A DNA stretch of 64,000 nt from a virus. The stretch is from positions 27,287-91,286 of the IMG/VR virus record IMGVR_UViG_3300032246_001892, one strand, 5' to 3'. A program made the position numbers and the translations under genes. Below are positions 26,958 to 41,348 of this stretch, in pieces. Below the pieces are notes generated by a model. It was not told the origin of the DNA. It did no database searches and saw nothing but the letters and a program-made list of their open reading frames with translations. Every line of letters begins with the position of its first letter. Positions within the stretch are counted from its first letter, which is position 1.

Positions 26958-27614
26958 TTAAGATGAAACCCTTTTCAACTCTTCTATAATAAAATTCTTA
27001 ATTTTGTTTGTAGCCTCTTTAGTAAAGGCTTTTGTTTTTGGTGAATTGTGATATCTGGTTTTGTAAGCATTTAAATTATCTGTTAAATTAGGAGCCCATA
27101 AAGCCTGTTCATCTTCGCTTAAATTATAAACACTAGATAGATCACCAAGCTCCATTATACTATAAGGACTTATATTATGCTCCCTATAATGTTGAGTCCA
27201 AGCTGGCATTCTACCAATTTTAAAATTTAAGTATTGATTCAGAGTTATTTTATTCCTGAGACAGAAAAGAGCAACGAAGCGTAAACTATCTTTAATCTTG
27301 TCTAATTGTTTATCCGGAGACTGACTCTCTAATTGTTGTTGATAGAGGCTATAAGTTCTAATTGCTGCACGAGTGATGAAAAATTTAAGTGGAGGGCACT
27401 TTTCATCTGGGTGTAATCCACGAGGAGCACCGAAGAATTCATCCCATTTAATATGAGAAAATTTAGCAAAGAAATTACTCAGTCTCTTGAGCAAGACTAC
27501 ATTTTCAGGAGTAATATCTGAAAAATCTTTTCTAGGTTGATAAGGCAACCCATTACGGAAATGTTTAAGAAAGCAATTATATATATCTTGCTCTACTTTA
27601 TTCAATTGATTCAA
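26958..27614 (-). CDS. possible helicase loader (gp59-like)
   Basis: 218 aa, directly upstream of gp32 as T4 gene 59 is; only weak N-terminal resemblance. Confidence 0.4.
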   Translation of the reverse strand: MNQLNKVEQDIYNCFLKHFRNGLPYQPRKDFSDITPENVVLLKRLSNFFAKFSHIKWDEFFGAPRGLHPDEKCPPLKFFITRAAIRTYSLYQQQLESQSPDKQLDKIKDSLRFVALFCLRNKITLNQYLNFKIGRMPAWTQHYREHNISPYSIMELGDLSSVYNLSEDEQALWAPNLTDNLNAYKTRYHNSPKTKAFTKEATNKIKNFIIEELKRVSS

Positions 27615-30951: not shown

Positions 30952-32145
30952 TTATTCTTCCTCCGTTTCAGAATATAAAACATTATCAACTGGTGTTAAT
31001 GTCTCTGAGATTGTGTCTTCAGAGTCTGTATCTTCAACAGTCAAAGAATCATTATTAAAACAAAGCTTTGTTCGTAATTTCTCTTCTAATGCTGGTAGAA
31101 TTTTATCCCAAACTTTAACATCGGTTTTCCAATCTTTAAAGAATCCTAACATTTCTCCATTGAACGTATGACGATGACCTTGTTTTTCTACAACACCGTA
31201 ACCTTCACACATCTCGAGTAATCCTGAATATCTATTGAGACCGGTCCTAAAGTTTAGATACATCTCTGTCTCTAAATAAGGTGGCACAAATCGATTCTTA
31301 GTTGTAAAGGCTCTAAGGGTCAAACCATTAATGTCTTTGGATAAAGGAGTAACATCTGTATTGGAATCTTTATTCTTACTATCACTTGATCTTTCAGCTT
31401 TCTTAGCCATCTGAACAATAACGGATGCCATATAAAGAGGTCCGGATCCACCAGCCTGCTTCTTAATTGCTGAAGGATGCATCTGCGATGGATCTTCGTA
31501 TATATGATTAGTAAATACTACTGGGCAATTAGCTTTGGCTGCTGAATGAGTAATTGCTCTCATCATACTCTTAAGAGCTTTTGCCCTATTACCCATATCT
31601 GGAGTATCACTTCCTTCATCTATCTTCTTCTTTTCTTGTGTAGTAATAAGATTACCAAGAGAATCAATAACGATAAGAACCTTGCCGTGTAATTTCTTCT
31701 CAACAACGTTTTCTAAAAACTTGACGATTTGATTTCTACATCCTTCGGTAATTTCTGTAGGTATGTGTTTAATCTTAGAAGGATCACATCCAAGTCTTGA
31801 TGCAGTACTTTCATCCAAAGCTCCCTCTGTATCAAAATATGCAATATGCATACCTTTCTTTTGTGCATTGGCCATGACCTTATTGCACATAAGAGTCTTA
31901 CCACAAGATTCTGGTCCAATGAATCCCGTAAGTCTACCCATAGGGATTCCTCCATATATAGAACCTGAGATAATAGCATTAAGAGCCATTGAACCGGTAT
32001 CAATCCATTCCTTAACTGTAGATAAACTATTCTTATCTAAATAAGATGCCTCAGGATTAAGATCCTCTAAAACCTTAAAAGCATCTTCAATGCTTCCACT
32101 ACTTGTTTCTTCTACGTCTGCTTCGTTTTTCTTTTTGTATGCCAT
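30952..32145 (-). CDS. uvsX: RecA-like recombinase (UvsX)
   Basis: IDTGSMALN, GPESCGKT, FDTEGA, IDSLG, NH-x-Y, GGSG, KNRF; start reassigned to 32145 (MAYKK). Confidence 0.93.
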   Translation of the reverse strand: MAYKKKNEADVEETSSGSIEDAFKVLEDLNPEASYLDKNSLSTVKEWIDTGSMALNAIISGSIYGGIPMGRLTGFIGPESCGKTLMCNKVMANAQKKGMHIAYFDTEGALDESTASRLGCDPSKIKHIPTEITEGCRNQIVKFLENVVEKKLHGKVLIVIDSLGNLITTQEKKKIDEGSDTPDMGNRAKALKSMMRAITHSAAKANCPVVFTNHIYEDPSQMHPSAIKKQAGGSGPLYMASVIVQMAKKAERSSDSKNKDSNTDVTPLSKDINGLTLRAFTTKNRFVPPYLETEMYLNFRTGLNRYSGLLEMCEGYGVVEKQGHRHTFNGEMLGFFKDWKTDVKVWDKILPALEEKLRTKLCFNNDSLTVEDTDSEDTISETLTPVDNVLYSETEEE

Positions 32146-32162
32146 ATAATATATAATAACAA

Positions 32163-32197
32163 AAAACCTCAGAAAGTCAAAGACTTTCTGAGGTTTT
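32163..32197 (-). terminator. rho-independent terminator
   Basis: Perfect 16-bp inverted repeat aaaacctcagaaagtc-aaa-gactttctgaggtttt with a U-run on the minus strand, just downstream of ORF 32225..32617. Confidence 0.8.
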
Positions 32198-32224
32198 CCT
32201 GGTTTCTTTTTTTTTAACGATCGA

Positions 32225-32617
32225 TTACTCGTCAAAAAGATTCACGACACCACCTGTAGGTGCTCCTGATACACCACCGGCTGGAACAAAGAGGTTACTC
32301 TTGTTGAACATCTGGCTGTACTGAGCCTGAAGTCTGAAATCGATGGCATCGATGTCGGCCTCGGTGATGTTGTCCTTCTTGTAGAGGAATACCACGTCAC
32401 CAGTCTTATCAGGGAGAAACTCTCTGAAGAAGATAGGAAGGAGTTGAACAGACATTCTTCCGCTCTGATCCTGTGGCACTACGTTGAGGACAACTGGGTT
32501 CTTTAATGCAAGAACCTTGTCGGTTGTCTTTTCAAGAACCGTCTCGCCCAAAATGGTGCGACCTACGGTATCTAATATGGTTGTTAATGTTGTTGTTGTT
32601 GTTGTTTCTTCACTCAT
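32225..32617 (-). CDS. conserved-type small phage protein, possibly Sm-like fold
   Basis: GRTILGE...LKNPVVL pattern; own TTGAAT-N16-TATAAT promoter and terminator; C/G-ending codon bias. Confidence 0.6.
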   Translation of the reverse strand: MSEETTTTTTLTTILDTVGRTILGETVLEKTTDKVLALKNPVVLNVVPQDQSGRMSVQLLPIFFREFLPDKTGDVVFLYKKDNITEADIDAIDFRLQAQYSQMFNKSNLFVPAGGVSGAPTGGVVNLFDE

Positions 32618-32647
32618 GGGTTTTAATATTATACTTGTACTGAATTA

Positions 32648-33298
32648 TTATTCAAGAGGCAAATTCCAATTTAATGCTTCTGAAATATTTGGAAATGCAT
32701 CTATAAAAATATTTTTAATATCATTGGCAATTTCTCTATGCTCTTTTTGAGTATCTTCATTACATCTAAGATCTATATAATGTATCCAACTTCTCAAGGT
32801 GCCACTCATATACAAAGTTGTTTGAGTACAAAGAGGTAAAACCATTCTTGCACATTCTTTAGCAACTCCTTTAGATAAAAGCTTTTCATATAAAGAAGCA
32901 CCCTGGATAAGATGATTTTTAACAGCTTCTTTATCCTCACCTAAATCTAATAAATTCGTACTAGATTGTCTGTTCTTTTCAGACTGTTCTCTAATTTCAA
33001 ATGATTCAAAATTAGTAACACTACTATACCGTTGACTAAATTCTTGAAACGCAAAACTTCTATGTCTTAAAATTTGTGCTGCTATTGCACGAGATGTTTG
33101 GATCTCAACCGTTGCACTTACCATTTCTAATGGACTCCAGTGTTTATGTTTTATCAAATACTTTAACAGTTTAGGTGCTGTTTGAGTATTCATTTGATTA
33201 TCCGGATTGGATACTCTAGCACAATAACTAACAAAGTCTTCTGCTGATTCTAAACCTTCTATTAAAGGTTGAGTTATACCTACTAGTCTCACTTGCAT
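32648..33298 (-). CDS. thyX: flavin-dependent thymidylate synthase
   Basis: ARVS, HWSPLE, RHRSFAFQEFSQRY, ECARMVLP, TQKEHR. Confidence 0.95.
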   Translation of the reverse strand: MQVRLVGITQPLIEGLESAEDFVSYCARVSNPDNQMNTQTAPKLLKYLIKHKHWSPLEMVSATVEIQTSRAIAAQILRHRSFAFQEFSQRYSSVTNFESFEIREQSEKNRQSSTNLLDLGEDKEAVKNHLIQGASLYEKLLSKGVAKECARMVLPLCTQTTLYMSGTLRSWIHYIDLRCNEDTQKEHREIANDIKNIFIDAFPNISEALNWNLPLE

Positions 33299-34158
33299 AA
33301 AATATTCTCCTTGAAAAATAAAATGTTATTTTCAATACATGATAATTGTTCTTCGTTCACTTCTTCTTCAAATATATGAACCATTTTCTCTATAATTTTA
33401 TGTTCTAGATTAGAAGCTCTCTCATAATTCTTATTATTGAATCCCATTAATACTGGATGAGATGTATCTATGGTTTCTATGAAAGAATAAAGATCACCTG
33501 TATAATTTATAAATTCTGTTGGTAACCCACAACCTAGTAAATGGTGTGATTTTGTATAGTCTATAATACCGTCATCTATAAATCTCTTAAGAAGCTGAGG
33601 TCTAAAGGTAGCAAATGCTGTTGGTTTCCATACTTCTTTTAATTTCTTTTTATTTTTTAAAGGATTATCTGTAATTGCTTTATATATAGATTCTTCACAA
33701 TTCTCTAATGCTTGCTGCCAATAATAGTCATAACCAAAGCTAATTGCTATCTTATCAGCATATTGAGACATGAATAAATAGGAATCTTTTAATTCCTGGT
33801 AATTCTTTCCCTGAATAACTCCTATGCGTGTACCTCTTGCTGAATGAGTATCAAATTTACCTAGGAACTGTTCAAAACATTTAACATTAGCTTCATAATC
33901 TTGAAATACATCCGGAATTATATATTCATCTGGCTCTAATTGAAGAACCCAATTAAAAAATAAATCGTGATTATATGCTTCACCAAGCTCATAGAGACTA
34001 TTATCTAAAATAATTTTACGCCCCATCTTTTTAGACTCAAAGAAAAAGTCTCTATATTCTTTGCTTTCTTCAAGTAAATGAACTAAAGCATAGTCATAAT
34101 CCGTTAATTCACGGACTCTCTTCATTATTTTTAAAGGTGCTTCATGTGCTACTAACAT
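33289..34158 (-). CDS. dpdA: TGT-fold (DpdA-like) 7-deazaguanine transglycosylase
   Basis: IILDNS, IIPDV, IGVIQG, HHLLG, IDTS match TGT-barrel motifs; queD, queE and folE2 nearby. Confidence 0.6.
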   Translation of the reverse strand: MLVAHEAPLKIMKRVRELTDYDYALVHLLEESKEYRDFFFESKKMGRKIILDNSLYELGEAYNHDLFFNWVLQLEPDEYIIPDVFQDYEANVKCFEQFLGKFDTHSARGTRIGVIQGKNYQELKDSYLFMSQYADKIAISFGYDYYWQQALENCEESIYKAITDNPLKNKKKLKEVWKPTAFATFRPQLLKRFIDDGIIDYTKSHHLLGCGLPTEFINYTGDLYSFIETIDTSHPVLMGFNNKNYERASNLEHKIIEKMVHIFEEEVNEEQLSCIENNILFFKENILCK

Positions 34159-34179: not shown

Positions 34180-36522
34180 TTAACTGAACAAATCAAATAA
34201 ATCTGTACATACTTCTGCACTCATTGAAGGCAGATTCCATCCAATACACTCATATACTCTTTGAATAGGTGGTGCTACTATTTTATCAAACATTAACTGA
34301 TGGTTAATTTTAATGAAATCATTAAGCTCTGGAGGATATTGATCTATAAAAGCCATTACTTTAAAATTGTAAGGGTTCTTAGAGGCATAAAAGTATTTCA
34401 TTTTCATACCGCTGGTAATAGATTCATATACATTATCTATATTATGCTTCTTGAGGAGCCCATTATAATGAATAGCAGCCTTGGCATGAATGGGTGTGCC
34501 TTTACCTATCTTACCAAAACTATCCACTTTAGCTTCTTGTTTCTCGATATCCGAAATCTTACTACGAATAGAGATATCTTCCGCCTTCATTTCTTTAAAA
34601 TTCTCATATGCATCTCTAAAGATTTCATTAGATCTCTTTTTATCTTCGACAAGCATTGCGGATTCGATTACATTTTTAATTAATTTCTTAACTGTATCGG
34701 AAATAGATGACCGTGCTACTTCAACTCCTACATACTTAAAAGGATCTTTTGGTGTATATCCTTCTTTATCTAATACGTGAAGTATATATCTCTTCTTTTC
34801 CATGAAGAGACCCACATCACATATAGTCTCCTGCTTAAAGACAAAACGTGCATCTGTAGATTTTAATTCATTTATAGCCCATACAATAATTTCTCTATTA
34901 AGATACTCATCAATTTCCTTGGCTACTTCTCTTGCCTCAGTAGATAGCTTGCCTTCCTTAATAAGATCTACATTCAAGTGTGATAAAATAGGTTGCATAG
35001 AAAAATAACAACTATCCGTATCACCATAAAGGTATATATTCTCCTTACCCACTTTACATCCCTTCTCAATTGCATATTTATAAACTATTTCTGCTGCTTG
35101 TTTAACAACCGCTTGGCCGGTGAGAGTAATACTAGCTGAGTGATCTATATCAAAAAGAGGAGAATACTTTTGTGCAAATACTCCGTAAATGGAATTCAAC
35201 ACGAGCTTATAAACATTCTGTAGAGTATCTAAATTAAGAATCTCTTCTTCAATTTTATCTCTTTCGGTTTTATCCTTTACCGAAGATACCATCTTCTCTC
35301 TTTTAATCATCTCATTCTTGGCTTCTACTCTCTCATTATAAAGACGATCAATGAGATTAGGAATGACTCCTTTAAATTTTTGAGTATAAAGAACATTGTA
35401 TTTGGATATCGAAAGGCTCTCCTTTTGGACCAGTCTATTGAATTTCTCTTCTGATAAAGTAACCGTTTTCTCATTAGCTAACTTTATAGTATATTCTCCA
35501 TCCTGACTATTGATAACTTTACCTATCTTAGTCTCTGGAGATATGTTCAAGGTGATAATGGTATTAGGATATAGACTGTTAGCATCATAACTAACAACTG
35601 CCTTGCTTAAACCTCTTTCTGGTTCATGAACGTATCCACCTACATACTCATCTCTCACTCCGTCATTCTTAAAGGTAGGTATTTTATATCCTTGAATAGC
35701 TGCTTGATGAGCCACTGCACCTGTAATCATGGATACCTTACCCATAGATTGTTCAAAAGGTATAAATCCTTTGTATGAAAGTGTGCGAATGAGTTTAATA
35801 AATTTGAGCTTCTCATCCAACTTTACAAGTATTCTTACGTCTTGAATATTGTAATCTACAAATAACTCCCAATTATCAATTGATAATTGAGCCAGGTTTG
35901 CTCCTCCAGTATCTATTTTACCTTCTTTTAATTCGTATTCGCCAATGAAATTCAAAGCATAAGATTCTCTATCGCCTCTTGTAAAGGTTCTATAAACTTC
36001 CATGTAATCAATATTACTAACTCCTCTAATGTACCAACGATTGATCATCTTACCAAATTTATTCATAGCTACATTCTCTCTATAATAAAGGGAATTAACT
36101 GGTGATAATCTTGCAGCATCTTCTTCACCAAATAAATTATGAAGTCTATTCATAATGTAAGGAATATCAAATCCTTCGCCGTTCCATGTACTAAGAATAT
36201 CGGGAGGCTCCTTCTCCCAGAAAGAAAGAAATGCCTGAAGCATGTCTGTTTCTTTCGGATGACAGAAATATGTTACATTACTATCTTTAGGTGTATAAGG
36301 TTTCTGACCCCATGAATAATATTTCTCCTCAATAGTATCATAAATGGTAATGAGATTGATAGGGTAGTCTGCCTTTTCAGGTTCAGGAAAAGAACTGTCA
36401 TTTGCATAACAGGAATCTTTATATTCTACCCATTTTTTCTTTTTTTCGTCCCATACTTCGTAATCATCTCTCAAGGACTTATTATTCCTAATATCCCCCA
36501 ATGTTATAATTTGTTCTTCCAT
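34180..36522 (-). CDS. gp43: family B DNA polymerase, C-terminal fragment (ExoII/III and polymerase domains) with 38-aa foreign leader
   Basis: WNGEGFDIPY, YNIQD, YDANSLYP, KLVLNSIYG, YGDTDS, KKRY; no ExoI motif. Confidence 0.93.
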   Translation of the reverse strand: MEEQIITLGDIRNNKSLRDDYEVWDEKKKKWVEYKDSCYANDSSFPEPEKADYPINLITIYDTIEEKYYSWGQKPYTPKDSNVTYFCHPKETDMLQAFLSFWEKEPPDILSTWNGEGFDIPYIMNRLHNLFGEEDAARLSPVNSLYYRENVAMNKFGKMINRWYIRGVSNIDYMEVYRTFTRGDRESYALNFIGEYELKEGKIDTGGANLAQLSIDNWELFVDYNIQDVRILVKLDEKLKFIKLIRTLSYKGFIPFEQSMGKVSMITGAVAHQAAIQGYKIPTFKNDGVRDEYVGGYVHEPERGLSKAVVSYDANSLYPNTIITLNISPETKIGKVINSQDGEYTIKLANEKTVTLSEEKFNRLVQKESLSISKYNVLYTQKFKGVIPNLIDRLYNERVEAKNEMIKREKMVSSVKDKTERDKIEEEILNLDTLQNVYKLVLNSIYGVFAQKYSPLFDIDHSASITLTGQAVVKQAAEIVYKYAIEKGCKVGKENIYLYGDTDSCYFSMQPILSHLNVDLIKEGKLSTEAREVAKEIDEYLNREIIVWAINELKSTDARFVFKQETICDVGLFMEKKRYILHVLDKEGYTPKDPFKYVGVEVARSSISDTVKKLIKNVIESAMLVEDKKRSNEIFRDAYENFKEMKAEDISIRSKISDIEKQEAKVDSFGKIGKGTPIHAKAAIHYNGLLKKHNIDNVYESITSGMKMKYFYASKNPYNFKVMAFIDQYPPELNDFIKINHQLMFDKIVAPPIQRVYECIGWNLPSMSAEVCTDLFDLFS

Positions 36523-37313
36523 GTTTCTCTTAAATTTTTAAAACGGTTCCAAACATAATGTGATTTACTTTTTATATATTCTTCAAAAGCTTTATCAGAC
36601 ATTGAAGCAAGTCTTTTGCCTGTTATCTCATTCTGATTGGTTTTCTTTCCTTTTTTGGAAAGAGATATTTTCTTTCCTCTCATTATATGATCAACATTAG
36701 AGTTATGCAAACTTTTCTTCAATCTTTCTTTTTTTTCATTATCAGACAATTTTTCAATTCTTTCTTTTGCTATAGTACTTAATTTTCCTTTTACTTGAGA
36801 CGTAAATCCTTTTTTTGTTGTGGTGTGATCCCAATGATTATATAAATATTTGTATCTTTTATCCTTCACTTTATCACCACACCCACATTTACAAAGAGGA
36901 AGAGATTCATATTTAAGCCTTTTTAAAATTAAAGAACGTTTAAGGTGTGATTTTTTTACTTTATTCCTTATTTCTGGATTTTTCATTGGATGATTTTCTG
37001 AAAAATATCTTCTTGCCAAATCATATTCTTTGGATTTATAAAATCTCTTTTGATTTATACCATTCGCACACATTTGATTAAATGCTGATGATAATTTACA
37101 TTTAATAGCTTGAGAAGCATTACCATGTATTTTGCATAGTAATCTGTGTACTATAAAATGTTCCCTAGCAGTTAATATAGTAATATTAGAAATGGAGCTA
37201 TTACCACCCATACATTTAGGTGTTATGTGATGCTTTTCATAGTAAACACCCTTTATTTTTTCTCTTTGCTGGCCTCTTGTACATAATTTTTGATATAGAA
37301 GGGTATAATTCAT
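36504..37313 (-). CDS. HNH homing endonuclease (MobE-like)
   Basis: EKHHITPKCMGG...LTAREHFIVH, NHPMKNP, CKCGCG. Confidence 0.88.
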   Translation of the reverse strand: MNYTLLYQKLCTRGQQREKIKGVYYEKHHITPKCMGGNSSISNITILTAREHFIVHRLLCKIHGNASQAIKCKLSSAFNQMCANGINQKRFYKSKEYDLARRYFSENHPMKNPEIRNKVKKSHLKRSLILKRLKYESLPLCKCGCGDKVKDKRYKYLYNHWDHTTTKKGFTSQVKGKLSTIAKERIEKLSDNEKKERLKKSLHNSNVDHIMRGKKISLSKKGKKTNQNEITGKRLASMSDKAFEEYIKSKSHYVWNRFKNLRETWKNKL

Positions 37314-37318
37314 ATTAA

Positions 37319-37326
37319 TATTTATA
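37319..37326 (-). promoter_or_regulatory. T4 late promoter consensus TATAAATA for the HNH gene
   Basis: Exact TATAAATA 5 nt before the ATG at 37313. Confidence 0.7.
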
Positions 37327-37351
37327 CCTCTCTATGTCCAAAATATTTGTG

Positions 37352-37753
37352 TTATGATTTTTTTCTTATTTTAATTTTAAAATCATCCCTAAAATTATGA
37401 ATGTCTGTTTCAATGTCCAAGAAATATACTTTAAGAGGGAAGTTACCAAAATCTAATTTATTAACTTCATCTTTATATCTATTAAGAAGGAAATCTTGTT
37501 CACAACTTAGATTATTAAACAATCTTTTGATAGGAGTCTCATTGACAAATTTACTCCTATCAAATTGATTACGGAATCTTACCTTCTTTAAAGGTGTATT
37601 AAAGATGGAAGTAGCATCATTTGCTGATGCTGACTCTATATAAAGATGCGGCTCGTAATCTTCTACGAGCTTAATACGTTTACCGTTTTCATCCCAGGTC
37701 CATAGATGGACTACCTGTTGTCTTCCATCATAAAAAATATTTCTCCATGCCAT
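37352..37753 (-). CDS. gp43: family B DNA polymerase, N-terminal fragment (to ExoI) with 17-aa foreign tail
   Basis: YEPHLYIES N-domain motif; ends VYFLDIET then DIHNFRDDFKIKIRKKS*. Confidence 0.88.
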   Translation of the reverse strand: MAWRNIFYDGRQQVVHLWTWDENGKRIKLVEDYEPHLYIESASANDATSIFNTPLKKVRFRNQFDRSKFVNETPIKRLFNNLSCEQDFLLNRYKDEVNKLDFGNFPLKVYFLDIETDIHNFRDDFKIKIRKKS

Positions 37754-38370: not shown

Positions 38371-39267
38371 ATGAATAACATTTTTAATGATACTAAATAT
38401 ACTAAATGGTACTTTGATTTAATAAATCAAAGAAAGCAAAAACCCTTGCAAGGTAATATATACACAGAAACACATCATATTTTACCACGTAAATTAGGCG
38501 GTGGAGATAATTTTGAAAATTTAATAAAATTAACGGCAAGAGAACATTTTATAACTCATTTATTATTAACAAAAATGACAAATGGAATTAATAAAAAATA
38601 TATGTTTCATGCTTTAAATTTAATGGCATATACAAGGAATTTAAAAATAAATTCAAAAACATATTCTTATATTAAAGAAAACTATTCAAAAGAAAATAAA
38701 GGTAATAAAAATATAATGTTTGGTAAAAAAGGATTAAATCTCCCTGCATATGGTTATAAACACACAAAAGAACATAAAAAATATATTTCAAATAAACTTA
38801 AAGGTCGTAAACACAGTAAAGAAGCAAAAGAGAAAATGACTAGAGCGGCTATGAATAGAAAAATAACTGAACAAACTAAAGAAAAAATTTCAAAAGCTAA
38901 TAGTGGAATTAATAATCCTATGTATGACAAAAAACATACATTAGAAACTAAACATAAAATGAAAAAAAATCATGCTAATTTTGAAGGAATTAATAATCCT
39001 ATGTTTGGAAAATCATATTGGAAAGGAAAACAACATTGTAACGATACTATTTTAAAATGTAAACTTAAAGGTTACAAGTTATCTCACATATATGATGTTT
39101 ACTCTAATGAAGATATATTTTTTTACGGAAATTTATGTGATTTTTGTGCTTCCTTAAATTGTAGAGCTGGGGTATTACAGCGTACTTTAAAAACTCAAAA
39201 ACCAATAACTAGAGGCCCTTTAAAAAATTTAATATTAAAGGGTTATTATCCTTTGATCGGGGTTTAA
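38371..39267 (+). CDS. HNH homing endonuclease with NUMOD3-like repeats
   Basis: ETHHILPRKLGG...LTAREHFITH; repeats KHTKEHK, KHSKEAK, NPMYDKKHTLETK, NPMFGK; ATAAGTA upstream. Confidence 0.88.
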   Translation: MNNIFNDTKYTKWYFDLINQRKQKPLQGNIYTETHHILPRKLGGGDNFENLIKLTAREHFITHLLLTKMTNGINKKYMFHALNLMAYTRNLKINSKTYSYIKENYSKENKGNKNIMFGKKGLNLPAYGYKHTKEHKKYISNKLKGRKHSKEAKEKMTRAAMNRKITEQTKEKISKANSGINNPMYDKKHTLETKHKMKKNHANFEGINNPMFGKSYWKGKQHCNDTILKCKLKGYKLSHIYDVYSNEDIFFYGNLCDFCASLNCRAGVLQRTLKTQKPITRGPLKNLILKGYYPLIGV

Positions 39268-40551
39268 GTCTATTAAACCCGAATTACTAGCATTTCTTTC
39301 TTTTGAACCCCATTCTGTAAAGTATAAATCATAATATTTTTGTATATGGTCTTCTAACCACAACCCTTCTGCAAACTTTCTACTCTTAGCAGATAAATTC
39401 ATATACCTATCAAAGTCTGAAGTTATATATTCTAATTTATTAATAAGATCCCCACCAGTTTTGAATGGGTTATCTGCTCCTTCATAGGTGCAAATGTCTT
39501 GATAGGTTCCAGGCATACCAAAAGCCCCTGCTTCAACCATCTTGATATTACTCTTAGAACGGTTGAATACATTGTCCTGTAGAGGAGCAAATGCTACGTT
39601 ACAGTTAGTATCGTATATTCCTTGAGGGAAATCTGGTAATGCAGACCAATCTATGTATTCCATTTCACCGTTATCTATATAAGGTTTAACAGCTAAAGGA
39701 TAACATCCCTTCCAAACAAATTTAAATTTCTTACGAGCCTTGATAATATCCTGCACTACGTGCGCAAAATCATCATTCATTCCAGTTCTATTAGCAACAT
39801 CGATATGTGTGCCTGATCCTGCATAAAGAACTCTTGGACGCTTTTTATGCTTATCATAAAGTTCTTCGACCCTATTTTTATTATAAAACCGATCTAACCA
39901 GAATTTAGGAGGGTAGTTAGGAATAACTGTAACATTTTTATTACCAGTCTTGTTAATATAGTAATCCTTCATGTATTGACAAGTAACCGTCACCTCATCC
40001 ATGGAGCTCATTATATCTAGAATACTCTTTACGATGTTTTCATCTACGAATGCATCCTTACAGCGGTTATAATCTGGGATATCATCCTTGAATACAATGT
40101 CATCAACCTCATAAAGAAGTCGGAATCCCATATCTTTCTTAACCTTTGTAAGTTCTTTTACAAAAGCATTCTGAATGGGTGTAGCCTGGCGCTGTAAACG
40201 AATTGCTTTTAGGTTTTGGTAAAACCTAATATCCATTACCATTGCAGTTAATCCTGAAATACAAGCTTTTTGATATTGATTAAGAGCAAACTCTGGCCAA
40301 ATCATTCTCCAAAAACCACAACCTCCATAATCTGCATAATAATTTAAGGCTCGTGGTAAAGACGCTTCAGCCATCTCAACGGGAGGAGGCTGAGGAACAC
40401 TAATGGGATTAGATGCTACGTATGAATATTGAGGAACTCCAGCAGGGATTCCAGCTGGGGCTAAAGGCAATCCAGAATTAAGGGCTTTGTATTCATATAC
40501 AATTCTATTGGAGTCTGCCGTTGAGGGAGTATCTTTGATTTTTAAAGCCAT
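39235..40551 (-). CDS. GT-B fold glycosyltransferase
   Basis: GCGFWRMIWP, YEVDD, VIPN, APLQDNVFNRSKSNIKMVEAG. Confidence 0.8.
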   Translation of the reverse strand: MALKIKDTPSTADSNRIVYEYKALNSGLPLAPAGIPAGVPQYSYVASNPISVPQPPPVEMAEASLPRALNYYADYGGCGFWRMIWPEFALNQYQKACISGLTAMVMDIRFYQNLKAIRLQRQATPIQNAFVKELTKVKKDMGFRLLYEVDDIVFKDDIPDYNRCKDAFVDENIVKSILDIMSSMDEVTVTCQYMKDYYINKTGNKNVTVIPNYPPKFWLDRFYNKNRVEELYDKHKKRPRVLYAGSGTHIDVANRTGMNDDFAHVVQDIIKARKKFKFVWKGCYPLAVKPYIDNGEMEYIDWSALPDFPQGIYDTNCNVAFAPLQDNVFNRSKSNIKMVEAGAFGMPGTYQDICTYEGADNPFKTGGDLINKLEYITSDFDRYMNLSAKSRKFAEGLWLEDHIQKYYDLYFTEWGSKERNASNSGLIDLNPDQRIITL

Positions 40552-40583
40552 ATAACAATTTACAAAACTAAATCAAAAGTCAA

Positions 40584-41348
40584 TCAGACCCTTAAGGCTT
40601 TATTCCAAATCACAAGCTGTAATCTAGGACTAAAATTGACGTGTAATGCTTTAGCATACTCCGCAACCGCTGCTGATCTCTCTGTGTGTTCTGATCTCGA
40701 ACCACAGCAAGGCATAAACCAAATTCTATTAAGAGGTATATTGATACCAGCTTCATCCTTTACATATTTTCTCCAAATCTCTTCTATATCTTTATCAGAG
40801 TTAATGACAAATTTAAATCCAGAATTATATTTCACATGCCATTTAAGAATCTCTGGCTTATAGGTCTTCTCCTCAGGATCACCATTTGTAGTAAGCTTAG
40901 GAGAGGTTGTAAATGTTGCTCCCAACGAAATCCAATCTTCACTAGGTTTCAAAGTAGCATTGGTTTCAAAATCAATAATAGGAATGAATTTATACTTGTC
41001 AGAGAATGCTTTGACAAATTTAAGAAGCTGCTTCTCTTGAATAAGAGGTTCACCTCCTGTAAGCTTAAGAATAGCATTGTTTTTAAGATGTTCGATATAG
41101 TTATTATCTTCCATAAGCTGAAAGATCTGATTGAAAGTCATCTTATTCTTTACAGACCAAGAGACAAAAGAATCACATCCATTAGGAGAGTCTACTGAAG
41201 CAAATCCTATACAGGTTAAATTACACATAGACATTCTCATGAATACAGAAGGCTTACCAATATATTCTCCCTCACCTTCTATGGTGTAGAATACTTTGTC
41301 ATCTGAAAGGAATAAGGTTTCTGTATTTGAATCTATTTTGGTTGTCAT
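40584..41348 (-). CDS. queE: 7-carboxy-7-deazaguanine synthase (radical SAM)
   Basis: FYTIEGEG...G.PSVFMR..CNLTC...CDS, LTGGEP, ETNAT, TSPKL, FSPRLQ. Confidence 0.88.
   Translation of the reverse strand: MTTKIDSNTETLFLSDDKVFYTIEGEGEYIGKPSVFMRMSMCNLTCIGFASVDSPNGCDSFVSWSVKNKMTFNQIFQLMEDNNYIEHLKNNAILKLTGGEPLIQEKQLLKFVKAFSDKYKFIPIIDFETNATLKPSEDWISLGATFTTSPKLTTNGDPEEKTYKPEILKWHVKYNSGFKFVINSDKDIEEIWRKYVKDEAGINIPLNRIWFMPCCGSRSEHTERSAAVAEYAKALHVNFSPRLQLVIWNKALRV

Follow-up and report, generated by a model that had tools for sequence, protein, structure and literature searches.

The window analysed here is a stretch of 64,000 nucleotides (nt), positions 27,287 to 91,286 of IMG/VR virus record IMGVR_UViG_3300032246_001892. 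Coordinates refer to this window unless another locus is named. On its minus strand the gene for a T4-type family B DNA polymerase (PolB, gp43) is divided into two open reading frames (ORFs) directly after the first exonuclease motif, ExoI, and a free-standing HNH endonuclease gene lies between them. The upstream ORF (N-fragment) carries a short basic tail after its native sequence, and the downstream ORF (C-fragment) opens with a short acidic leader (Table 1). The 3' end of the HNH ORF and the start of the C-fragment share 19 nt. The whole insert, 37405..36409, is 997 nt long, a length not divisible by three, and its removal restores DIET-YANDSSFPEP. An earlier reading made from the letters alone (the sequence-only reading) had described both fragments, the HNH ORF, its promoter, the overlap and the seamless deletion, and all of these are present in the sequence.

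Table 1. Features of the split polB locus in the window (nt positions) and elements of the AlphaFold2 model of the contiguous-module PolB of locus L087 (residue positions)
Feature	Position	Strand	Remarks
PolB N-fragment ORF	37753..37352	minus	133 amino acids; ends ...YFLDIET + DIHNFRDDFKIKIRKKS and stop
PolB N-fragment native part, residues 1-116	37406..37753	minus	N-terminal domain and exonuclease strand beta1 with ExoI D-I-E-T
Basic tail DIHNFRDDFKIKIRKKS, 17 amino acids plus stop	37352..37405	minus	First strand of the insertion module
Homing-site-like copy ATATTTTGGACATAGAGAGGTAT	37324..37346	minus	Degenerate, reads ILDIER-Y; runs into late promoter
TATAAATA, T4-type late-promoter box	37319..37326	minus	5 nt upstream of HNH ATG; read from sequence
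HNH ORF, free-standing, MobE-family homing endonuclease	36504..37313	minus	269 amino acids
PolB C-fragment ORF	36522..34180	minus	780 amino acids; 38-residue leader, then YANDSSFPEP
Acidic leader MEEQIITLGDIRNN...DDYEVWDEKKKKWVEYKDSC, 38 amino acids	36409..36522	minus	Remainder of the insertion module
PolB C-fragment native part	34180..36408	minus	Rest of exonuclease domain (ExoII, ExoIII) and palm, fingers, thumb
Diverged tract, ~45 codons, probable co-conversion tract	36274..36408	minus	Directly 3' of insertion
beta1 bearing D-I-E	L087 108-115		AlphaFold2
Tail strand IVKVR	L087 127-131		AlphaFold2
Tight turn KKT	L087 132-134		AlphaFold2
First leader strand	L087 135-139		AlphaFold2
Short helix	L087 140-145		AlphaFold2
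Hairpin EVWD / EWVA	L087 151-154 and 159-162		AlphaFold2
Native beta2	L087 from 186 (186-193)		AlphaFold2

The split enzyme has the exonuclease and polymerase domains of a T4-type gp43 and the fold of the RB69 and T4 proteins. The break parts its catalytic motifs: ExoI (DIE) is on the N-fragment, and ExoII (WNGEGFDIPY) and ExoIII (YNIQD) are on the C-fragment. A Pfam scan places DNA_pol_B_exo1 at residues 49-191 and DNA_pol_B at residues 268-759 of the C-fragment, and matches no family in the N-fragment or the leader. Both ORFs are intact, as had been claimed, and the ratio of nonsynonymous to synonymous substitution rates (dN/dS, omega) against the uninterrupted polB of locus L022 is 0.066 for the N-fragment and 0.063 for the C-fragment. 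These values indicate purifying selection on both.

Many uninterrupted relatives of this polymerase are present in IMG/VR. The nearest are 85-87% identical, with L001 and L022 closest at 85% overall. The native part of the N-fragment is 87% identical to residues 1-116 of these relatives, and that of the C-fragment is 84% identical to L022. The junction reads DIETYSP.EFP.PE, with no tail and no leader, in 15 loci found with the N-fragment and in 19 found with the C-fragment. Between Y and FP the window's PolB holds one residue more than its relatives (YANDSSFP vs YSPNEFP). Because the uninterrupted relatives have neither extension, both extensions must have come with the insert in this lineage. 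In a BLAST search of 50,697 phage records, DNA similarity was limited to short conserved stretches of polB and the HNH gene, no relative of the N-fragment was found, nor any of the tail and leader at E up to 1, and no cultured phage was found to bear the two peptides.

The HNH protein matches the phrog_655 homing endonuclease family (E 1.9e-32) and has the motif EKHHITPKCMGGN...LTAREHFIVH. Its N-terminal half (residues 1-106/139) is 37-46% identical to annotated mobE genes that adjoin nrdA in T-even phages. The sequence-only reading had the polymerase gene split by a MobE-type free-standing HNH gene, and both comparisons bear this out. The nearest relative, in L037, is 53% identical over the full length and occupies the same polB site, where orthologues are found in other contigs too. 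In close pairs dN/dS is 0.08-0.15. In nine of ten loci the downstream fragment starts within the HNH ORF, and the TATAAATA box is found at the same place in L037, L080, L085, L089 and L090. No minus-strand terminator was found within the cassette.

At least 13 fetched loci and 17 protein clusters have homologous tails and leaders at this polB site. Since the same layout with homologous peptides recurs in many independent contigs, the arrangement in the window is not due to chance. L037 has a 133-residue N-fragment ending in ...SIKIRKKT and a homologous leader. Scans of viral and metagenome contigs with the leader alignment yielded L075-L081, L084-L086 and L088-L093, and a word-indexed protein search with the leader returned three proteins only. 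The core of the tail, K[IV][KR][IV]RKK, hardly varies among 12 N-fragments, even where the N-terminal domains are just 22-28% identical, and residues D20, E22, V23, D25, W31 and Y39 are invariant among 12 leaders. In all 13 loci the tails are basic, with isoelectric points (pI) of 9.2-10.7, and the leaders are acidic, with pI of 4.05-5.05; the values in the window are 9.99 and 4.89.

Tail and leader are under selection at least as strict as the enzyme that carries them. Omega for the two peptides is 0.01 between L075 and L086 (17 synonymous to 2 nonsynonymous changes), 0.07 between L081 and L093 (17.5 to 9.5) and 0.07 between L075 and L037 (17.5 to 13.5), equal to or below that of the PolB core. 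The Arg and Lys codons of the tail vary among loci, which argues that the constraint acts on the protein and not on the RNA or DNA. The peptides are also retained where the endonuclease gene is not. In L075 the fragments are parted by a 13-nt spacer alone, and in L076 a 184-nt remnant of the HNH gene is left; the split and both peptides are kept in each. The L075 spacer and the start of its C-fragment still encode, in another frame, the last nine codons of an L037-type HNH protein.

In locus L087 a tail-like and a leader-like sequence are fused in frame (DIEV...KKIVKVRKKT-EL-MMSLAEV...DDYEVWDESKKEWVAYNESKY...GFPEP). An exhaustive HMMER search with this region against 1.84 billion cluster representatives (clusters at 50% identity) gave 35 matches. 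Seventeen of them are split C-fragments that start with Met and the leader. Twelve are PolBs with a contiguous module of ~55 residues right after DIE[TV], among them P0011 (908 residues), P0012 (1003 residues), P0020 (911 residues) and P0029 (932 residues). Five others are PolB pieces that lack the module, and one match is spurious. Alignments A6-A10 were checked and used, and A4, A5 and A11, which placed the tails on the acidic DYEVWDE strand, were discarded. Alignment A9 matches the tails of split forms to the x[IV]K[IV]R strand of the contiguous ones and the leaders to the stretch that follows, E.x[IV][ST]L.EF...DYEVWDE...W...SCY; the break falls in the variable linker that separates the two parts. 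Because unsplit PolBs of other phages carry the same ~55-residue segment contiguously, the two peptides are best described as halves of a pre-existing module. Uninterrupted homologs with such a segment, which count in part against the sequence-only reading, occur among the PolBs of other phages and not among the near relatives of the window's enzyme. Its claim that the insert brought the peptides stands for this lineage, and fails in so far as it made them newly formed.

The module is predicted to fold. The AlphaFold2 model of L087 residues 1-350, computed with A9, has a mean predicted local distance difference test score (pLDDT) of 91.8, with 85-97 in the blocks of the module (Table 1). The window's tail aligns to the strand at 127-131 of the folded module and its leader to the strand, helix and hairpin at 135-162. 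The module is flanked by beta1 and beta2 in this model, so that the break lies between adjacent beta-strands of the exonuclease domain. As the tail strand, the KKT turn and the first leader strand are consecutive, the natural break is predicted to be the turn of a beta-hairpin. When the module is modelled alone its topology is unchanged (pLDDT 79.7). The tail strand (37355-37390) and the DYEVWDE strand (36445-36465), both encoded on the minus strand, are opposite in charge but follow one pattern, [DN]D[FHY]-x-[IV]-x-[ID]-x-KK, and MAFFT repeatedly stacks the two. The module may be built of two similar hairpin units.

The distribution of the split state among PolBs is patchy. A PolB tree was calculated without the module, on 426 residues that follow it. 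On this tree the split state requires 9 changes for 11 rows, at least 6 of them forced by well-supported branches, and its clustering does not exceed that of shuffled labels (as few changes in 187 of 500 shuffles). The window's PolB nests among the module-less L001, L002 and L008 (support 99), L075 and L086 adjoin the module-less L006 and L012, and L037 adjoins L017. Deeper in the tree split forms pair with contiguous ones: L088 with P0035 (98), L076 with P0023 (98), L080 with P0011 and L090 with P0010. Over ~45 residues directly 3' of the insertion the window's PolB is 55-66% identical to L022, against the 85% found overall. In this diverged tract it shares FPEP with cassette-bearing alleles, and module-less members of its clade have FPVPE. 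The tract is a probable co-conversion tract. The patchy distribution on the tree and the co-conversion-like tract argue that tail, HNH gene and leader enter module-less alleles as one block. On the same basis the HNH protein would cleave the endonuclease-less allele site-specifically.

These features suggest how the locus may work. A MobE-family HNH gene would sit inside the coding sequence of a ~55-residue module, which is itself lodged in the beta1-beta2 hairpin of PolB directly after ExoI. Two cistrons would be expressed. Subunit A would consist of the N-terminal domain, the ExoI strand and the basic beta-strand tail, and subunit B of the acidic leader (a strand, a short helix and a beta-hairpin) and the rest of the enzyme. 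The two would reassemble non-covalently: the small module would be completed when the tail strand pairs with the first strand of the leader, and its completion would return the ExoI strand to the exonuclease sheet. Neither RNA splicing nor protein splicing would take part. The HNH enzyme presumably cuts module-less DIET/Y alleles, and repair would copy tail, HNH gene and leader as one block; later decay of the endonuclease gene would leave a split gene or a contiguous module.

A two-subunit polymerase that fragment complementation holds together, as in NrdA of phage Aeh1, with the HNH gene and the module travelling as one cassette, is in our judgement the likely explanation of the locus. We infer that the fragments assemble and that they need the peptides to do so. 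A clasp function of the peptides is well supported by comparative and structural inference. The sequence-only reading had proposed a non-covalent clasp, and this remains the best account in view of the conservation and opposite charge of the peptides, the omega of 0.01-0.07, their survival of HNH loss and the hairpin fold, but the idea is not new (PMC3045599). A more far-reaching version is tentative. It holds that a portable fragment-complementation module is the cargo of MobE-type endonucleases, serves as an antidote to the break at the ExoI hairpin, and is left as a split or fused scar after decay of the endonuclease gene; the module might derive from the N-terminal lobe of an intein.

Several points weigh against fragment complementation through the peptides. 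The N-terminal domain and beta1 have a large native interface with the rest of the enzyme, and the peptides may for that reason be dispensable for fragment binding; the Aeh1 NrdA fragments bind each other without their tails (PMC3045599). The contiguous form in unsplit PolBs shows that a module need not owe its existence to a split. The deep rows of the tree were retrieved by a module search, so that sampling is biased to carriers and the tree does not decide between a contiguous-first and a split-first history. The PolB described here is the sole one on the 91-kb record; the record is ~42% complete, so a second polymerase is possible elsewhere.

Part of this counter-evidence is also what an ordinary insertion domain would predict. 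The ~55-residue segment would then be a lineage-specific domain of PolB with its own job, perhaps as a binding site for a partner or for DNA, and this job would account for the conservation of both halves. The HNH gene would have landed in a permissive loop, and the native interface would assemble the fragments even if the peptides do not pair. The contiguous module in 12 unsplit PolB clusters and in L087 fits such a domain, as does its ability to fold alone, and the tails of Aeh1 NrdA are unnecessary for heterodimer formation (PMC3045599). However, PolBs 83-88% identical to that of the window lack the module, as do the relatives of L075 and L086 and of L037. Because near relatives are entirely without it, the module is dispensable for polymerase function in the window's clade, where it is found only with the HNH gene or a remnant of it. 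Furthermore, the basic C-terminal end and the acidic start are more conserved in split than in contiguous forms, where the linker varies freely. On balance we regard an insertion domain of this kind as unlikely.

A likeness of the module to inteins (Hint fold) had been proposed, and the structural comparisons give a divided answer. Inteins recur among the weak structural matches: they make up five of the 25 weak VIA rows (KlbA, PolII mini-intein, VidaL, NrdJ-1 and Npu DnaE) and five of the 17 weak Foldseek rows (NrdJ-1, NeqN/NeqC twice, VidaL and PolB16-OarG), in each case with the first ~50-60 residues aligned. However, KOW/SH3-like barrels score level with inteins among the same rows. Foldseek with the module found no significant neighbour in the PDB (E >= 5) or in BFVD (E >= 0.55), and a search of the ESM Atlas returned PolB-exonuclease clusters only, below 0.9. 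The likeness is thus a weak lead from structural models and not a family membership. It is improbable that a split intein, having lost its catalytic parts, has shrunk to these peptides as a docking pair from the N-terminal lobe of the Hint fold.

The insert might also be a group I intron with an HNH ORF, with RNA splicing restoring a single frame. HNH genes are known in introns of phage polymerase genes. A split intron core might in principle be accommodated by the flanks outside the HNH gene (92 nt and about 114 nt), and a 5' exon with a final C would allow the intron to end in G. Rfam models were nevertheless searched against 36200-37600 and no intron model was found up to E = 10; chance-level snoRNA, miRNA and CRISPR rows were the only returns. 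The insert has a GC content of 27.6% and a weak fold, and it lacks catalytic-core elements such as P7 as well as R/S elements. Its flanks evolve as coding sequence, with many synonymous changes and the low omega given above, they are in-frame coding sequence in the contiguous forms, and L075 retains them although its spacer is only 13 nt. An intron is therefore very improbable.

Less probable still is a working split intein that joins both fragments by protein trans-splicing. Dassa et al. 2009 (PMC2677866) described 'fractured genes' with the same order of half, free-standing endonuclease gene and half, in which opposite charges likewise lie on interacting strands at the break, and some natural split inteins have very short N-parts. 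In those genes, however, the halves have complete Hint parts with catalytic residues and are expected to trans-splice (PMC2677866), whereas the module described here is without catalytic residues and amounts to less than half of the fold. DIE[TV] is followed by D, Y, E, N, H, A or V and never by a conserved Cys, Ser or Thr; the module ends in ...S-C (or C-R, S-E, S-K) followed by Tyr, with no TxxH and no terminal His-Asn. The absence of splicing residues noted from the sequence alone is thus borne out across the family. The insert length, indivisible by three, and the total of 55 residues in the peptides also speak against trans-splicing. Computation argues against both a group I intron and a working intein. 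Three further candidates are ruled out: a contiguous intein by the length of the insert, a pseudogene by the omega of ~0.06 on both fragments, and a frameshift or ribosome hop by the 829 nt with stops in all frames between the window's fragments and the varying frame offset among loci.

Fragment complementation of this kind has a precedent in the nrdA-a/mobE/nrdA-b genes of Aeh1, where a basic tail (pI 10.4) and an acidic tail (pI 3.8) were gained with mobE and are essential for activity (Crona et al. 2011, PMC3045599). The Aeh1 gene is broken between adjacent beta-strands, and mobE and nrdA-b overlap (PMC3045599). The split polB resembles Aeh1 NrdA (Friedrich 2007; PMC3045599) in that a free-standing MobE-type HNH gene splits an essential gene for an active-site-bearing protein between adjacent beta-strands, with a basic tail upstream and an acidic leader downstream, both absent from uninterrupted relatives, and in that the downstream fragment begins inside the endonuclease ORF. 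Aeh1 does without RNA or protein splicing, and the same is argued here by computation. The host gene differs, being PolB at ExoI and not NrdA. Aeh1 is a single case with tails that have no known relatives, whereas the present pair is a conserved family of 17 split and 12 contiguous clusters. The module has a confident predicted fold, outlives the endonuclease gene and exists unsplit; function has been shown for Aeh1 only.

The split gene 43 (43A/43B) of Aeromonas phages 25 and 44RR is a second point of comparison. As later papers summarise it, its products co-purify and are polymerase-active (Petrov, Ratnayaka & Karam 2010, via PMC2988022 and PMC2677866). There too a T4-type PolB is made as two cistrons, and phage 25 has a homing endonuclease gene between them. 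According to the same accounts, the endonuclease is unlike that of the window in being of the seg/GIY-YIG type, the two cistrons are parted by a short intercistronic sequence that is untranslated, and a group I intron is present in phage 25 as well; they do not describe a conserved peptide pair for 43A/43B.

The spacer upstream of the HNH gene may have a regulatory role. In seven of the ten HNH-bearing loci a significant copy of the locus's own uninterrupted target (DIE[TV]/Y) lies between the N-fragment stop and the HNH ATG, and these copies run into the TATAAATA box. Copies were scored by local alignment to the virtual homing site against 2000 shuffles. An equal or better score was reached by 13 of the 2000 for the window's copy and by none for that of L091 or of L090, the latter identical at 23 of 26 nt. 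In I-TevI a homing-site look-alike that overlaps the late promoter is an operator for autorepression, as summarised in review (Edgell et al. 2004, reviewed in PMC2988022). By analogy the window's copy, ATATTTTGGACATAGAGAGGTAT, is a candidate operator for the HNH protein, which probably represses its own gene through the target copy at the late promoter. Here as in I-TevI a homing-site-like sequence overlaps the late promoter of the endonuclease; I-TevI, however, is a GIY-YIG enzyme encoded in an intron, whereas the window's enzyme is a free-standing HNH protein. In L090 the spacer (1703-1761) has an inverted repeat, ATATTGAAGTT ... AACTTCAATAT, around the TATAAATA box. By comparison with Aeh1 mobE this repeat could form a hairpin controlling HNH expression.

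Further interruptions are seen in several of these polymerase genes. The split-PolB C-fragment of L076 (4600-4700) ends after 374 residues (...VIYINTSK and stop), which indicates another interruption downstream, and the same is seen in L077, L078 and L084. The contiguous-module PolB of L087 (3700-3760) is split at a second place, before motif B and without an endonuclease gene; its first ORF ends ...SGKLNEL and the adjoining cistron starts MNYDDMTLEEL...KILLNSLFG. This second split is possibly of the 44RR 43A/43B type. The break between 43A and 43B is reportedly far downstream, in the polymerase half. Intein-like (Hint) sequences are found further along polB in L091 (4300-4447), where the C-fragment ends ...VTEDHSIMVDRDGYLIEVKPTDIL..., and in P0015, where an insertion after DTDS (residues ~880-1050) ends ...VHNS; they imply that several kinds of mobile element strike the same polymerases. 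In L025 (4001-6230), on the contig of L008, a module-less and otherwise uninterrupted polB ORF ends at 742 residues, compared with ~857 in its relatives.

A second free-standing MobE/phrog_655 HNH gene is present in the window at 38371-39267 on the plus strand, among minus-strand genes just upstream of polB. It encodes 298 residues and is 38% identical to the HNH protein resident in polB over residues 3-112. Other neighbours, at 30952-34158 and 39235-41348, encode a UvsX-like recombinase, a ThyX-type thymidylate synthase, a glycosyltransferase and a QueE-like radical SAM protein. The QueE-like protein suggests 7-deazaguanine DNA modification, and the set of neighbours is consistent with a T4-like myovirus.

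No paper describing the conserved peptide module was found in the literature. The idea of rescue by tails is itself known (PMC3045599); the new elements are the ExoI site and a single module family that is conserved, foldable and transferable and that occurs split, as a remnant and fused. Crona et al. 2011 predicted that tail-assisted splits would be general, yet hard to detect by similarity (PMC3045599). Aeh1 NrdA is the only case in which insertion of a homing endonuclease gene has been shown to supply the rescue peptides for the gene that it breaks. Here the tail and leader form a conserved family across dozens of uncultured T4-like phages, contrary to the expectation of those authors that each case would have tails of its own. 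The natural controls at hand, with and without endonuclease gene or split, make both the origin of the tails and the reassembly of a split enzyme directly testable, and the family would explain how an essential replication gene can be invaded in its catalytic core by an endonuclease gene. As a small natural pair the module may serve to split proteins, and two-piece polymerases should not be labelled pseudogenes in annotation. If the module is indeed portable, it would be the first conserved, transferable 'split-repair' peptide family, and if it also descends from an intein it would link inteins with tail-assisted genes in pieces.

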